DNA from: a virus
Taxonomy: Duplodnaviria; Heunggongvirae; Uroviricota; Caudoviricetes
DNA length: 64,000 bases
IMG/VR virus record: IMGVR_UViG_3300032307_000505
Location: 18,786 to 82,785 of that record
Direction: 5' to 3' (one strand)
Both the position numbers and the translations under genes were made by a program. The notes under the pieces were generated by a model. The model searched no databases. It was given only the letters and a program-made list of their open reading frames with translations, and had not been told where the DNA came from. Shown here piece after piece: positions 9,533 through 21,697 of the stretch (the stretch's first letter is position 1; each line of letters begins with the position of its first letter).

Positions 9533-9607
9533 TGTCCTCGGTAGGCCTCGAACCTACATATCTCTCGGTTATGAGCCGAGCGCCTTCACCAATTTAGCTA
9601 CAAGGAC
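9533..9607 (-). tRNA. tRNA-Met (anticodon CAT)
   Basis: Cloverleaf read by eye: acceptor GTCCTTG/CGAGGAC, anticodon arm CTCGG-CTCATAA-CCGAG, T-arm GTAGG-TTCGAGG-CCTAC, discriminator A. Confidence 0.7.
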
Positions 9608-9698
9608 AAAAATTAGGTTTTGGTGTAAACACCCTACATGACTTTAACCTAAAAAGTACACTGAGTAATTTAAAACCCCCAGCGGTTTTTACTGAACC

Positions 9699-9947
9699 TT
9701 ATTGGTGGTGTTTTACATACCGACCAAATTTATCCACCCTCACAGAGAGTTTCTCCAATCTAAAGTTCCATTCCTTGAACTTTCCTAAGCCGGTTTTTAA
9801 CCTTGCTTGTTTAATCGCAGATTCCTCTGCCTTCTCACGTCCTTCTTCTGTGGTTTCCACAAAAAAAGTGGGAGCCTGAACACCGTTTCTAACGGGAACT
9901 ACTCTCCAAATTCTCAATTTCTGAGTCATAATACTTGAACTAGTCAA
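9699..9947 (-). CDS. hypothetical small basic protein embedded in the tRNA island
   Basis: 82-aa ORF (Lys/Arg-rich) with its own minus-strand terminator-like hairpin (AAAACCGCTGGGGGTTTT) downstream; no family recognised. Confidence 0.4.
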   Translation of the reverse strand: MTSSSIMTQKLRIWRVVPVRNGVQAPTFFVETTEEGREKAEESAIKQARLKTGLGKFKEWNFRLEKLSVRVDKFGRYVKHHQ

Positions 9948-10119
9948 GTACTACGTGGAGTTCGGATTTTGGTTTTTCATATTGATAATTTACACTTTTT
10001 ATAATTAAAAGAAATATTAAACATATGGTGGTCTATCACCTCACATTTTCAACGGGTCCAATTTTACGTGTGCCACACTGGTTTACTTCTGCAATGTCTC
10101 TTTAATGTTTAATATTTTG

Positions 10120-10199
10120 TATCCCCGGTGAGAGTCGAACTCACATGCCTAAGCAACAAGTTTTAAGCCTGTCGTGTATACCAGTTCCACCACGGGGAT
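10120..10199 (-). tRNA. tRNA-Leu (anticodon TAA)
   Basis: Acceptor ATCCCCG/CGGGGAT, anticodon arm ACAGG-CTTAAAA-CTTGT, 11-nt variable region, T-arm GTGAG-TTCGACT-CTCAC. Confidence 0.65.
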
Positions 10200-10205
10200 A
10201 TTTTG

Positions 10206-10288
10206 AGCTTCCGATTGGATTCGAACCAACGTGACCTTTCGGTTCCTGATTACAAATCAGGTGCAATCAACCTCTATGCGACGGAAGC
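10206..10288 (-). tRNA. atypical type-II tRNA, anticodon reads TGT (identity unclear)
   Basis: Acceptor GCTTCCG/CGGAAGC. 3-bp D-stem typical of class II. Anticodon arm CCTGA-TTTGTAA-TCAGG. Long variable hairpin ACC-GAAA-GGT. T-arm GTTGG-TTCGAAT-CCAAT. A UGU anticodon in a long-arm scaffold is non-canonical. Confidence 0.5.
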
Positions 10289-10407
10289 CTGTCTCTTAAA
10301 CTACTATTTTAACATCATCACTTCGGCCACATTGGGAGAACCGCAGTTCCCACGTTGTTTAAGGAGGTAGTTGGCGGTGTATCACACCGAGTTATGATAA
10401 TGTATTG

Positions 10408-10480
10408 TACCTCAGGAGGGAATCGAACCCTCAAAATCTTGTTCCTAAGACAAGCGTGTCTACCGTTCCACCACCAAGGC
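10408..10480 (-). tRNA. atypical tRNA, anticodon TAG (Leu by anticodon but class-I scaffold)
   Basis: Anticodon arm CTTGT-CTTAGGA-ACAAG (U33, G37). T-arm GAGGG-TTCGATT-CCCTC. Variable loop only 5 nt. Acceptor GCCTTGG/CTGAGGT has three G:U pairs. Confidence 0.45.
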
Positions 10481-10488
10481 AATTGTAG

Positions 10489-10560
10489 TACCCTCAATAG
10501 GACTCGAACCTATATCAAAACATTAGAAGTGTCTTATTCTATCCCTTGAACTATGAAGGC
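10489..10560 (-). tRNA. tRNA-Arg (anticodon TCT)
   Basis: Acceptor GCCTTCA/TGAGGGT, anticodon arm AGACA-CTTCTAA-TGTTT, T-arm ATAGG-TTCGAGT-CCTAT. Confidence 0.65.
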
Positions 10561-10567
10561 GGGTTGG

Positions 10568-10639
10568 AGCAGATAGAGAGAATCGAACTCTCGTCTCAAG
10601 CTTGGAAGGCTGGAGTAATAACCACTATACGATATCTGC
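10568..10639 (-). tRNA. tRNA-Gly (anticodon TCC), CCA encoded
   Basis: Acceptor GCAGATA/TATCTGC, discriminator T followed by genomic CCA. Anticodon loop CTTCCAA. T-arm GAGAG-TTCGATT-CTCTC. Confidence 0.65.
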
Positions 10640-10719
10640 AGATTTGGGTAGAATCAGACGCGTTCTGTCTACCGGGACCTCGTCGTTGACTTTCGTCAGA
10701 GCGGACCGAGACACATTTG

Positions 10720-10791
10720 TAGCGGGAGAAGGATTCGAACCTCCGACCTAGAGGTTATGAGCCTCCCGAGCTACCTCTGCTCTATCCCGCA
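10720..10791 (-). tRNA. tRNA-Met (CAT), initiator-like
   Basis: Collinear with E. coli tRNA-fMet: D-arm GAGCAGAGGTAGCTC with A11:U24, anticodon loop CTCATAA. Unpaired 1:72 (T/T). Discriminator A. Only two of the three initiator G:C pairs are present in the anticodon stem. Confidence 0.6.
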
Positions 10792-10797
10792 ATTTGT

Positions 10798-19786: not shown

Positions 19787-19863
19787 AATTTTACCCCACT
19801 TCACCGGGTTAATGGACCGGATGCCATATGGGAGTGGGGGTTTCCTGTTATATCAGGACTCCG

Positions 19864-19936
19864 TGGTATCGGTTGGAATCGAACCAACGACACCTTGGTC
19901 TTCAACCAAGTGCTCTACCGACTGAGCTACGATACC
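19864..19936 (-). tRNA. tRNA-Phe (anticodon GAA)
   Basis: Acceptor GGTATCG/CGATACC, D-arm AGCTCAGTCGGTAGAGC, anticodon arm CTTGG-TTGAAGA-CCAAG, T-arm GTTGG-TTCGATT-CCAAC. Confidence 0.7.
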
Positions 19937-19996
19937 GGCTCCTGTATACCTTTGCAAAGGTGGTGGTAGTACAGACACTATAATTCCACTATTCTG

Positions 19997-20068
19997 CTCT
20001 CCCGGGAGGACTCGAACCTCCATAAATTGATTAACAGTCAACCGTAATAACCTTTATACGACAGAAGA
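19997..20068 (-). tRNA. tRNA-Asn (anticodon GTT)
   Basis: Acceptor TCTTCTG/CGGGAGA (two G:U), discriminator G, anticodon arm GTTGA-CTGTTAA-TCAAT, T-arm GGAGG-TTCGAGT-CCTCC. Confidence 0.6.
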
Positions 20069-20197
20069 ATTTTTGACTACTACTTAGACTCTTCCGTTCC
20101 GTAATAGTAGTCCAAGGCGTTACGCACCCATCTAGTAACTTTACTTCTCTTGAGTCCGGGTAAGGCCTTACCAACTCAGGGGTTGTTTCCTTGTTTG

Positions 20198-20270
20198 TGG
20201 GTCCTAAGAGAATTGAACTCTTTCCTTATGTTCTTCAGACATACGTACAGACCACTTATACCAAAGACCC
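20198..20270 (-). tRNA. second GAA-anticodon tRNA (Phe-like)
   Basis: Acceptor GGGTCTT/AGGACCC, anticodon arm TATGT-CTGAAGA-ACATA, T-arm AAGAG-TTCAATT-CTCTT. Confidence 0.5.
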
Positions 20271-20408
20271 AAATATGATAATGTTGGAGTACCCATCTCG
20301 CTCCAATCTTAACTGCTTATTCGTAGTTTTACGAGGCCTCGGCAGGGGGTGCAGAATTCTTGAACCTATCTTGGATTGTCGACATCCGAGAGATAGAGAA
20401 AACCATTA

Positions 20409-21056
20409 TCATTTTATTTTTCTACCTAACCTCCAACCGTTAGGTATGTTATCACCTTTAAATATTTTTTTATTCTCAACATCATTAGTAATCCAACAAG
20501 TACCATATTGAGAGTTATTTTTACCTTTTTGATTTATTGAACTTTTTTTACCAATAAGTTTTTTACTACTTTCTTTATGTTTTTTACCGTTCCAATCCGA
20601 CTTGAAATTTTTATATTTTTCAGGATTTGTTTTTAACCTCAGTAATTGATTTTCTGAATGTTTTTTACGTAAGTTTTCTGTAAACAATAAATCAGTTTTT
20701 CTCAATTCCTTTTGTTTTAAAATTCCAGCCTTTGAACATTTTAACATATGTTCTTTATTTAAAAACCCACCATTACCACCTTCTTTAAGGTTCATACATT
20801 TCCCATCACTAATTAGTTCTTTGTTTACTATTTCTTTCTCTCTAAGAATCAATTTTTCTCTATTTGGTAGATATTCAAGTATTTCTTTTGTGTGGTTTTC
20901 AACCCCGTATTTCCTAATACTATGTCTTAACATTGTTCCACTCCCCATATAACCATCCTCAATATTAGTTGTGGAGTGCATCCCAACATACCATCTTCCC
21001 GTTACATTACAAGTTGTTTTGTAAATGTAATGTATGTTTGATTTTTTTCTTGCCAT
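20409..21056 (-). CDS. GIY-YIG homing endonuclease
   Basis: N-terminal IHYIYKTTCNVTGRWYVGMHS...YMGSG is the GIY-YIG module; C-terminal Lys-rich DNA-binding-like tail; sits inside the tRNA island. Confidence 0.7.
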   Translation of the reverse strand: MARKKSNIHYIYKTTCNVTGRWYVGMHSTTNIEDGYMGSGTMLRHSIRKYGVENHTKEILEYLPNREKLILREKEIVNKELISDGKCMNLKEGGNGGFLNKEHMLKCSKAGILKQKELRKTDLLFTENLRKKHSENQLLRLKTNPEKYKNFKSDWNGKKHKESSKKLIGKKSSINQKGKNNSQYGTCWITNDVENKKIFKGDNIPNGWRLGRKIK

Positions 21057-21115
21057 TTCAGTTTCCTTTAATAATAAATATCTCAGAAAACTGAAAAGTA
21101 CAAAAAAGTTTATGG

Positions 21116-21196
21116 TGGAAAGTAGTGGACTCGAACCACTCCCGTGAGGACCTGATTTACAGTCAGGTTGCCGTATCCGAACGACTTTTACTTTCC
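21116..21196 (-). tRNA. tRNA-Tyr (anticodon GTA), CCA encoded
   Basis: Acceptor GGAAAGT/ACTTTCC perfect, discriminator A + genomic CCA, anticodon arm CCTGA-CTGTAAA-TCAGG, class-II variable arm, T-arm AGTGG-TTCGAGT-CCACT. Confidence 0.7.
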
Positions 21197-21452
21197 AATT
21201 TTTGTACCTCGTGATGGTTATGCTCCACCTCCATTTGTATGTAAAACAAATACGCTCCTATTACGCCAACGAGGCTGGTGGATGAATTATTTTTTTTATA
21301 GTAGAATTCGTCAACCTCAAAACTACTTTGTACCGAGAAATGGTAACGCTCCATTCTAAAGTCAGATATGAGCCGTCTTTGGTCCTTGACCTCTCGGCAT
21401 TTTGGTGGACATAGATTCATCATCTATTCTTGGGTTTCCACCGAACCCGTTG
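21197..21452. other. GC-enriched non-coding spacer with an internal repeat, function unknown
   Basis: No credible ORF (track ORFs here overlap tRNAs). Two related units at about 21207..21262 and 21337..21370 (tttgtacc..atggtta.gctcca..). Confidence 0.3.
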
Positions 21453-21524
21453 AGGTGATAGTAGGATTCGAACCCACGTAACAGATTTTGCAGACCTGTG
21501 CCTAAGCCACTCGACCATATCACC
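21453..21524 (-). tRNA. tRNA-Cys (anticodon GCA)
   Basis: Acceptor GGTGATA/TATCACC, discriminator T, anticodon arm CAGGT-CTGCAAA-ATCTG, T-arm GTGGG-TTCGAAT-CCTAC. Confidence 0.65.
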
Positions 21525-21531
21525 ATTTTTG

Positions 21532-21603
21532 TTACCCCTAATGGAATCGAACCACTCCCGCATGGACCAAAACCATGTGTACTAACCGATATACGAAGGG
21601 GCA
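21532..21603 (-). tRNA. tRNA-Gln (anticodon TTG)
   Basis: Acceptor TGCCCCT/AGGGGTA, anticodon arm CATGG-TTTTGGT-CCATG, T-arm AGTGG-TTCGATT-CCATT. Confidence 0.6.
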
Positions 21604-21609
21604 AAGTTG

Positions 21610-21697
21610 CGGAAGGAGTGGGACTCGAACCCACACGTGTGTTACCACCAACGGTTTTCAAGACCGCGACCCGTAGACCAACTTGGCTTACCCTTCC
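21610..21697 (-). tRNA. tRNA-Ser (anticodon TGA)
   Basis: Acceptor GGAAGGG/TCCTTCC, discriminator G, anticodon arm GCGGT-CTTGAAA-ACCGT, long variable arm, T-arm GTGGG-TTCGAGT-CCCAC. Confidence 0.65.

Follow-up and report, generated by a model that had tools for sequence, protein, structure and literature searches.

An RNA-gene island in a jumbo phage of Bacteroidota type: tRNA genes, homing endonuclease genes and conserved structured spacers

Large arrays of transfer RNA (tRNA) genes that are reshuffled by homing endonucleases are already known from T4 (segB), T5 and the huge phages. An island of this type was analyzed in a 64-kb stretch of viral DNA (IMG/VR record IMGVR_UViG_3300032307_000505, positions 18,786 to 82,785), referred to here as the window, whose numbering is used for every coordinate. 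The tRNA island, at 9532-21697 on the minus strand, is a phage tRNA gene cluster: its genes are clustered on one strand, their cloverleafs score above curated thresholds and the genome is viral. It is a real block of ~12 kb with 26 to 28 tRNA genes, carried by a giant phage of Bacteroidota type. It is best read, with a probability of roughly 0.75, as the RNA-gene island of a ~300-kb jumbo phage that supplies a self-sufficient decoding set and is reshuffled by homing endonucleases.

The tRNA cluster of T4 and T6 resembles the island in having its tRNAs on the same strand, a freestanding GIY-YIG gene (segB) between tRNA genes and relatives without this gene. The T4 cluster also encodes non-tRNA stable RNAs (C and D). 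It has 8 tRNAs compared to 26-28 in the island, and the host phylum differs; the island furthermore adds two HNH genes, a 4.4-kb block of open reading frames (ORFs) and ~14 structured spacers. The site recognised by SegB of T4 takes in the stretch that encodes the T-psi-C arm, and SegB drives the T4 tRNA region to near-100% inheritance (PMC2330249). T6 SegB was found to amplify a segment containing tRNA-Tyr and so to overcome Septu; segB is widely associated with tRNA genes, in Bacteroidota phages as well (PMC13096335). T5 likewise carries its tRNA genes in a large cluster in which several homing endonuclease ORFs are interspersed, according to a secondary account (PMC2330249, citing Akulenko 2004). 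It infects Enterobacteria, has a 120-kb genome and is likened to the island by gene arrangement, not by sequence.

The huge phages have genomes of at least 200 kb, tens of tRNAs that differ from the host's (up to 67, plus a transfer-messenger RNA (tmRNA)) and translation genes (Al-Shayeb et al. 2020; PMC7162821). The counterparts here are relatives of up to 309-322 kb and a tmRNA at 3154-3544. To our knowledge, the huge-phage survey contains no description of conserved non-tRNA spacer RNAs or of tRNA-like frames with a variable body. Among 50,697 isolated-phage records, the sole nucleotide match was to the tRNA-Glu of Cellulophaga phages phi4:1 and phi17:2 (85% identity), which is consistent with a Bacteroidota host; only this one tRNA matches, the 145-kb genomes being otherwise unrelated at the DNA level. 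With the island, a theme already known is carried over to an uncultured, widespread family of jumbo phages of freshwater type. New are the conserved structured spacers without an Rfam match, one of them with 23 covarying pairs, and a Leu-type tRNA-like frame with a hypervariable body that occurs across more than 120 viral contigs.

The tRNA set and the phage family that carries it

ARAGORN at default settings called 25 tRNAs. They share the minus strand and are confined to 9532-21697, the rest of the 64 kb having no call. Rfam at its gathering score also gave 25; it added 21205-21275 (45.7 bits) and 10798-10868 (31.2 bits) to the ARAGORN set and missed two long-arm tRNAs, Ser(GCU) and Tyr. In E-value mode, which has laxer filters, an extra tRNA-like gene of 117 nt was found at 18804-18920 (38.3 bits vs a family threshold of 29). 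The union of both programs comes to 28 tRNA or tRNA-like genes on a single strand over ~12.2 kb, or 27 without the gene from E-value mode. An earlier note on this DNA had counted about 27 tRNA genes on one strand, and had held that recovery of far fewer by automated detection would speak against it; 25, 25 and 28 genes agree with that count, and each anticodon on its list was recovered. Its statement that a Val tRNA is absent proved wrong. A tRNA-Val (UAC) with an atypical T loop (AGCAUAA) is present at 21204-21275, found by Rfam and by ARAGORN at a slightly relaxed threshold, and its counterparts in many relatives are ARAGORN default calls. Because of this tRNA-Val all 20 amino acids are covered, so that the broad coverage described in the note stands while its figure of at least 18 specificities is too low.

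Read along the minus strand, the island begins with tRNA-Ser (UGA; 21609-21697), tRNA-Gln (UUG; 21531-21603), tRNA-Cys (GCA; 21452-21524), tRNA-Val and tRNA-Tyr (GUA; 21113-21196). These are followed by tRNA-Phe (GAA) of type A (20197-20270), tRNA-Asn (GUU; 19996-20068), a canonical tRNA-Phe (GAA) of type B (19863-19936, 74 bits; not present in L003, one of the related IMG/VR loci that were compared with the window and are labelled L002, L003, L012 and so on), tRNA-Ile (GAU) of type 1 (19714-19786) and tRNA-His (GUG; 19533-19605). Then come tRNA-Arg (ACG; 18674-18746), tRNA-Ser (GCU; 18511-18598), tRNA-Pro (UGG; 18414-18493; 80 nt with a variable region of 12 nt), tRNA-Ile (GAU) of type 2 (17722-17796) and tRNA-Lys (UUU; 17568-17639). 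The island is not continuous, as a block of small ORFs at ~12.2-17.0 kb splits the tRNA genes. Beyond this block are tRNA-Trp (CCA; 12127-12198), tRNA-Glu (UUC; 11037-11109), the gene with the Cellulophaga match, tRNA-Ala (UGC; 10960-11032), tRNA-Asp (GUC; 10884-10956), a weak CAU tRNA-like gene (10798-10868), a tRNA with anticodon CAU (10719-10791), tRNA-Gly (UCC; 10565-10639), tRNA-Arg (UCU; 10488-10560), tRNA-Leu (UAG; 10407-10480), tRNA-Thr (UGU; 10205-10288), tRNA-Leu (UAA; 10119-10199) and another tRNA with anticodon CAU (9532-9607). Apart from tRNA-Val and the weak CAU gene, all were called by both programs except for Tyr and Ser(GCU), which are ARAGORN calls.

Some members depart from the canonical structure. 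The CAU gene at 10798-10868, with 31.2 bits in Rfam and no ARAGORN call, forms 4 of the 7 acceptor pairs; the gene is conserved, its anticodon stem having one compensatory change, and is counted as tRNA-like. tRNA-Leu (UAG) has a Leu-type D arm and A73 with a variable loop of 5 nt in place of the long variable arm of a class II tRNA-Leu, and its counterparts measure 73-77 nt in all relatives. Judged from its sequence, it probably works like a tRNA-Leu though structurally atypical. In tRNA-Thr (UGU) the variable arm is long (3-bp stem) and position 73 is U; the gene is polymorphic among relatives: 84 or 82 nt with the arm and 73-74 nt without it. A further tRNA-like gene with an 8-nt anticodon loop, reported by ARAGORN as 'tRNA-???' (gaaa, gtaa, tagt or taat), is conserved in relatives (L012:16494-16570, L013:16781-16857, L005:7246-7322, L014:15041-15118, L040:18759-18836) and lies between Thr and Leu(UAA) in most carriers. 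It is not in the window, where the Thr-Leu(UAA) gap is 5 nt.

The anticodons amount to exactly one per codon box, with U34 for four-fold and purine-ending boxes and G34 for pyrimidine-ending boxes; the set is rounded off by ACG, CCA and CAU. Of the third codon positions in 61 ORFs of the window, 78% are A/T. tRNAs with C34 are found only for the single-codon Met and Trp boxes, a near-absence that fits the AT-rich genome. Only 9 of 21 boxes have an island tRNA that is the Watson-Crick match of the codon used most, and the set includes tRNAs for the rarely used boxes CGN, CUN, Cys and Trp. Together with the completeness of the set, this argues for independence from the host tRNA pool over topping up a few codons. 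The 26 plausible decoders would form a self-sufficient minimal decoding set for 20 of 20 amino acids. The most likely function of the island would then be to keep AT-rich phage mRNAs translated without reliance on a host tRNA pool that is possibly mismatched, depleted during infection or hit by tRNA-cleaving defences.

The phage family was delimited with the 202-aa protein of an ORF at 8809-9417 (minus strand), directly downstream of the island. Its 383 relatives in IMG/VR are 71-99% identical and come from contigs that reach 309-322 kb; the phages therefore form a widespread jumbo-phage family. The protein belongs to phrog_14949 and gave no Pfam, NCBIfam or meaningful PDB sequence match; in L012-L014 its gene is located within the island, between tRNA-Lys and tRNA-Trp, instead of after it. 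A search for relatives with the ORF at 22056-22763 gave none. PHROG families are present among the window proteins, and the island is syntenic in many relatives.

A scan of the minus strand for the motif TTTG-N19-TAnnTTTG, which we take to be the Bacteroidota promoter consensus, found sites upstream of tRNA blocks and ORF modules. One promoter-like site lies upstream of the first tRNA (21746-21788) and others are at 9434-9464, 11272-11302, 14713-14743, 16936-16966 and 22017-22047; two of the sites sit within a repeated 245-nt cassette and within a listed ORF. Sigma-70-type sites were not enriched (50 seen vs 52 expected). Intrinsic terminators were (18 seen vs 6.5 expected), and one at 9470-9493 closes the island. 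Several promoters of Bacteroidota type would thus drive minus-strand transcription of the island. Promoter type and tRNA-Glu match suggest that the host probably belongs to the Bacteroidota.

Endonuclease genes and mosaic evolution of the island

Three nuclease genes are found in the island, one SegB-like GIY-YIG gene and two HNH genes. The GIY-YIG gene (20409-21056, minus strand) matches PHROG 314 'homing endonuclease' (4e-34), and its protein is 41% identical, across 97% of its length, to Seg-type genes of T-even phages (tblastn, E = 4e-32); the match to Pfam SegE_GIY-YIG (1.2e-3) is under the Pfam cut-off. One of the T-even matches lies between tRNA-Met/Ile and tRNA-Arg of a T4-type tRNA cluster, which is the segB position. 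Together with its leader, the gene is a precise insertion of ~700 bp (~20413-21112) that starts directly behind tRNA-Tyr; the stop codon of the gene runs into the opening bases of the RNA element that follows, a 140-nt RNA. The junction of Tyr and the 140-nt RNA is uninterrupted in L003, and most relatives do not have the gene. The same gene was found at the same site in L013 only (92% identity), and paralogues with 52-60% identity occupy other tRNA gaps of other relatives. With its full-length similarity, intergenic position and empty alleles at the same site, the gene is by sequence a freestanding homing endonuclease gene of the Seg type. In L014 (13080-13952) a paralogue that is 60% identical to the window gene has a copy of tRNA-Gly(UCC) on each side. 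This pair looks like an endonuclease-associated tRNA duplication, as reported for SegB in T6.

The HNH gene at 17787-18344 (minus strand; PHROG 3e-16, weak by Pfam) is located in the gap between tRNA-Pro and tRNA-Ile, and its stop codon overlaps tRNA-Ile. Several natural alleles of this junction exist. It is empty, with a 5-nt gap, in L014 and L025, is occupied by the HNH gene of the window type in the window, L012 and L034 and by a different HNH gene in L023, and in L002 and L003 both the HNH gene and tRNA-Ile are missing. An HNH motif and patchy presence at a fixed site mark this gene as a predicted homing endonuclease gene. The second HNH gene, after tRNA-Lys, was identified by Pfam HNH_5 (2e-16) and PHROG (3e-36). 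Its ORF spans 17029-17622 on the minus strand, and a GTG at 17535 is the likely start, so that the gene (17029-17535) does not overlap tRNA-Lys. Because it is kept at 82-96% identity in 24 related loci, after tRNA-Lys every time, it behaves as a resident of the island and not as a sporadic invader; its sequence identifies an HNH nuclease whose homing role is unproven. The earlier note had counted three homing endonuclease genes, which applies to the GIY-YIG gene and the HNH gene at 17787-18344; the gene at 17029-17535 lacks sporadic presence.

The decayed HNH fragments mentioned in the same note were also found: two remnants, ~14803-14890 and 12520-12607, each comprise the last 27 codons and the stop of an HNH gene in a still open reading frame. 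They are 98% identical to the L002 allele and only ~87% to the window's own HNH gene, and therefore record recombination with a different lineage. The HNH 3' end is single copy in every relative. The two Phe and the two Ile genes are of divergent allelic types, most relatives having one or the other. Tandem duplication was considered as the origin of the second Phe and Ile genes and rejected in favour of two divergent allelic types joined by recombination.

Gene content, insertion junctions and presence/absence polymorphism were observed directly. Since the same junctions have empty alleles and alleles with different endonucleases in relatives, the comparison supports the view, already put forward in the note, that the island is a hot spot for invasion by freestanding endonucleases and for tRNA gain and loss. 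The endonuclease-free alleles that the note had proposed to look for in related phages indeed exist (L003 at the Tyr junction; L014 and L025 at Pro/Ile). The freestanding endonucleases (SegB-like GIY-YIG and sporadic HNH) sit exactly on tRNA boundaries. By analogy to SegB of T4 and T6, the endonuclease would cut the endonuclease-free allele of a co-infecting relative and would be copied in with neighbouring tRNA genes. Such homing could have produced the mosaic of insertions with tRNA cargo, paired Phe and Ile allelic types and segmental repeats bounded by HNH 3' ends. The family offers unusually clear natural alleles at the same junctions (empty, occupied, occupied by a different endonuclease), suited to tests of homing and of endonuclease-driven amplification outside the T-even phages.

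It could be argued that the island mainly compensates for codon usage, supplying tRNAs for A/U-ending codons that are favoured by the AT-rich phage over its host. This was the idea of the earlier note and is the prevailing view of phage tRNAs in the literature (discussed in PMC13096335). The 78% A/T at third positions, a U34 tRNA in each four-fold and purine-ending box and C34 restricted to Met and Trp agree with it. The set, however, is complete instead of selective, serves the rare boxes CGN, CUN, Cys and Trp and is cognate to the top codon in 9 of 21 boxes. A complete set is not a biased subset, and specific mirroring of codon bias is therefore not specifically supported; compensation as the main function is tenable but doubtful. 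tRNAs might also persist mainly because physically linked homing endonucleases impose their inheritance, while the phage gains little. Endonuclease genes directly abut tRNA ends, tRNA-Ile travels with an HNH cassette, the GIY-YIG gene of L014 lies between two tRNA-Gly copies, and SegB brings the T4 tRNA region to near-100% inheritance (PMC2330249). Most relatives, however, keep tRNA order and set at junctions without an endonuclease gene, compensatory changes maintain the stems, and drift with hitch-hiking does not predict an exactly complete set, which makes such selfish persistence quite improbable as an explanation. That the window is a tRNA array of a bacterial chromosome or plasmid can practically be dismissed: tRNA arrays with mobile genes do occur in some bacteria (PMC6409571), but all relatives are IMG/VR viral contigs, the window encodes phage protein families, and neither an invariant 25-mer nor a 35-mer from the canonical tRNA-Phe had an exact match among 185,579 bacterial and archaeal genomes.

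The reading as a self-sufficient decoding set reshuffled by homing has points against it as well. The conserved HNH gene after tRNA-Lys means that not all three nuclease genes fit the picture of selfish invaders. Non-canonical members may work poorly, namely tRNA-Val with its T loop, the CAU gene at 10798-10868, the armless Leu(UAG) and the long-arm Thr. The view is of 64 kb of the genome, and further tRNA genes or synthetases may exist elsewhere. Expression, charging, cleavage specificity, selective benefit and host identity are matters that we infer.

Conserved RNAs between the tRNA genes

The non-tRNA RNAs between the tRNAs are the more interesting part of the island. Almost every inter-tRNA spacer folds with a closing stem that unites its two ends, and almost every one is conserved in relatives, with pairing of 93-100% compared to 30-55% in slid alignments (mononucleotide shuffles served as a further control). 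About 12-14 spacers are conserved structured RNAs across the phage family. Rfam at E-values up to 5 over 9000-22200 gave no family for any spacer, only leader and plastid matches at chance level that overlap tRNAs. A Y RNA-like element (YrlA) was rejected; its sole match, of 24.5 bits against a gathering score of 69, overlaps real tRNAs.

The best supported spacer is the conserved RNA of ~140 nt at 20271-20412, with 5-6 helices (alignment A1, 15 sequences). In this RNA 23 of 38 pairs changed on both sides, 92% of the cells are paired vs 35-49% in slid controls, and none of 500 shuffles reached the observed value. The loop sequences GUCGACA and CGAGAYGGGUA do not vary, and a pairing of ACCC with GGGU, likewise invariant, may give rise to a pseudoknot. 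With a covariance model, exactly one copy per locus was found in 20 loci. The same model had no match in a T4-like tRNA locus, and the non-tRNA RNAs of the island are therefore analogous, not homologous, to those of T4. Another well-aligned element is the 201-nt RNA after tRNA-Trp (alignment A3, 17 sequences, 39 pairs, 8 compensatory). A hairpin (12060-12126) precedes it within 11858-12126, and it has a 15-bp closing stem and a U tract that give a terminator-like site.

An element of ~95 nt with a 10-bp closing stem (10305-10406, identified by its fold and by relatives) is essentially invariant in 19 distinct relatives, an invariance that leaves its fold without covariation signal. Exact copies of a 37-mer from it are present in 33 viral contigs, and a 25-mer had none in bacterial genomes. 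An anti-Shine-Dalgarno-like stretch in this element, ACCUCCUU, was dropped as evidence, as the 8-mer occurs once in the window vs ~2 times by chance.

The other structured spacers are, along the minus strand, those of 176 nt at 21276-21451 (3 sequences, 7 pairs changed on both sides, 94% paired vs ~40% slid), 128 nt at 20069-20196 (8 sequences, 5 pairs), 76 nt at 19787-19862 (12 sequences, 3 pairs), 108 nt at 19606-19713 (7 sequences, 4 pairs), 82 nt at 17640-17721 (13 sequences, 3 pairs) and 79 nt at 10640-10718 (3 pairs), the pairs being in each case those changed on both sides. Fold and conservation identified the spacer of 70 nt at 12199-12268 and two (10020-10118 and 9608-9698) that flank an 82-aa ORF.

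The Leu-type tRNA-like RNA at 18804-18920 (minus strand), recognised by its Rfam score, its fold and its family, combines a canonical acceptor stem and T arm, a D arm of the Leu type and A73 with a non-canonical body of 66 nt that replaces the anticodon and variable arms. In the fold of this body, a hairpin of 4 bp (loop GACGACA) is separated by a linker of 20 nt from one of 11 bp. The 5-bp anticodon stem and 7-nt loop with U33 of a canonical tRNA are lacking, and ARAGORN fits the gene only via differing arbitrary 'introns'. In relatives, the 15 frame pairs are 99.6% paired, 8 of them with compensatory changes, and the bodies are unrelated in sequence. An exact 25-mer (T arm plus acceptor) of the gene was found in more than 120 viral contigs, which is a lower bound. 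Among the matches listed, a strict D-arm motif gave at least 70 distinct bodies of 13-126 nt and variant D arms at least 95 further distinct loci; at position 48, directly ahead of the T stem, 144 of 170 distinct contexts have U. Since the search pattern prescribed A73, finding it throughout is no evidence; U48 was left free. One viral contig (L188:1353-2551) has a tandem array of four tRNA-like 3' frames within 1.2 kb. The variable bodies were also compared, as possible guide or antisense sequences, with ~2 Mb of related loci (blastn-short), and no consistent targets were found.

Parts reported to suffice for leucylation with the leucyl-tRNA synthetase (LeuRS) of Escherichia coli are A73, a D-loop/T-loop corner with G18G19 and A15:U48 (PMC9976931). 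The tRNA-like family keeps the same elements as these minimal tRNA-Leu substrates (A73, the G18G19 corner and U48). The minimal substrates are laboratory constructs, while the phage RNAs are known from their sequence, and the host LeuRS may differ in its requirements. The conserved LeuRS-type elements also explain how the armless Leu(UAG) could still be leucylated.

What the spacers and the tRNA-like gene do can be read in two ways. They may be mere processing punctuation, that is handles for RNase P, Z, III or E and terminators, and to this a little less than an even chance is given. Nearly all spacers have a closing stem that draws their ends together beside the tRNAs. The tRNA-like family keeps its acceptor, T and D arms while the body varies, and it is these arms that RNase P and RNase Z are expected to need; the bodies are just slightly more structured than random segments (mean z -0.81 vs -0.39). 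On the other hand, GUCGACA, CGAGAYGGGUA and the ~95 nt at 10305-10406 are invariant among relatives whose proteins are 73-80% identical, which exceeds the constraint on a cleavage handle, and real tRNAs flank every spacer and already offer processing sites. Furthermore, U48, not fixed by the search, occurs in 85% of the tRNA-like contexts and matches a LeuRS identity element (PMC9976931), not a known requirement of processing. Besides its tRNAs, the island might be an operon of functional RNAs, with tRNA-like scaffolds that can be charged and do not decode, acting as defence decoys or display scaffolds. This is rather unlikely; if the RNAs are functional and not handles, they would be new players in the contest between the phage and host translation or tRNA-targeting immunity.

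Other open reading frames and genes of the window

The block of small ORFs that splits the island (12663-16921, minus strand) is lineage-specific, being absent in L002 and L003. This 4.4-kb block (12.6-17.0 kb) holds ~14 small ORFs in two modules of 2.2 kb, and each module ends in a repeat of ~245 nt that consists of an HNH 3' end, a terminator hairpin and a promoter-like site. Repeat unit A, with these three parts, is at 16922-17167; unit B (14699-14945) holds the HNH remnant at 14803-14890, 98% identical to the L002 allele, and unit C (12518-12662) holds the remnant at 12520-12607, all on the minus strand. Seven small ORFs of the block (13180-16188, minus strand) are linked to one another through an identical junction of 22 nt, TAAAAACAAATAAGATATGAAA (stop, 3 nt, start), and end in ...NK. 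This junction may be a linker that permits cassette shuffling.

The remaining ORFs of the island are also on the minus strand. An 80-aa ORF at 12269-12511 belongs to phrog_18490, and two small ORFs of 85 and 67 aa at 19022-19519, taken from the ORF list, gave no Pfam or PHROG match. The region 11132-11835 contains a 104-aa ORF, a terminator (11316-11344), the promoter-like site at 11272-11302 and a doubtful 57-aa ORF. The 82-aa ORF of the ORF list that is flanked by two structured spacers is at 9699-9947.

Outside the island, a full-length tmRNA with encoded CCA is found at 3154-3544 on the plus strand, 6 kb from the island and on the opposite strand (Rfam 67.4 bits vs a gathering score of 47). 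It was missed by ARAGORN, which does call a tmRNA in the relative L047. An ORF at 5018-5581 (plus strand) has the HAD_SAK_2 domain of 'Swiss Army Knife' RNA-repair proteins (Pfam 8e-22), and an ORF at 19-999 (plus strand), truncated by the window start, encodes a ClpB-like AAA ATPase. The three genes suggest a neighbourhood of translation or RNA maintenance. With the tmRNA and the RNA-repair-type gene only a few kb away, the surroundings of the island fit the reading of host-independent translation.

Further along the plus strand, at 24614-27871, are two neighbouring genes for Nol-like carbamoyltransferases (PHROG 4e-105 and 6e-86). A thymidylate synthase homologue is encoded at 44451-45644 on the same strand (PHROG 2e-106). 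With 397 aa against a profile of 335 positions it is longer than is typical for the family, and it may carry an insertion.

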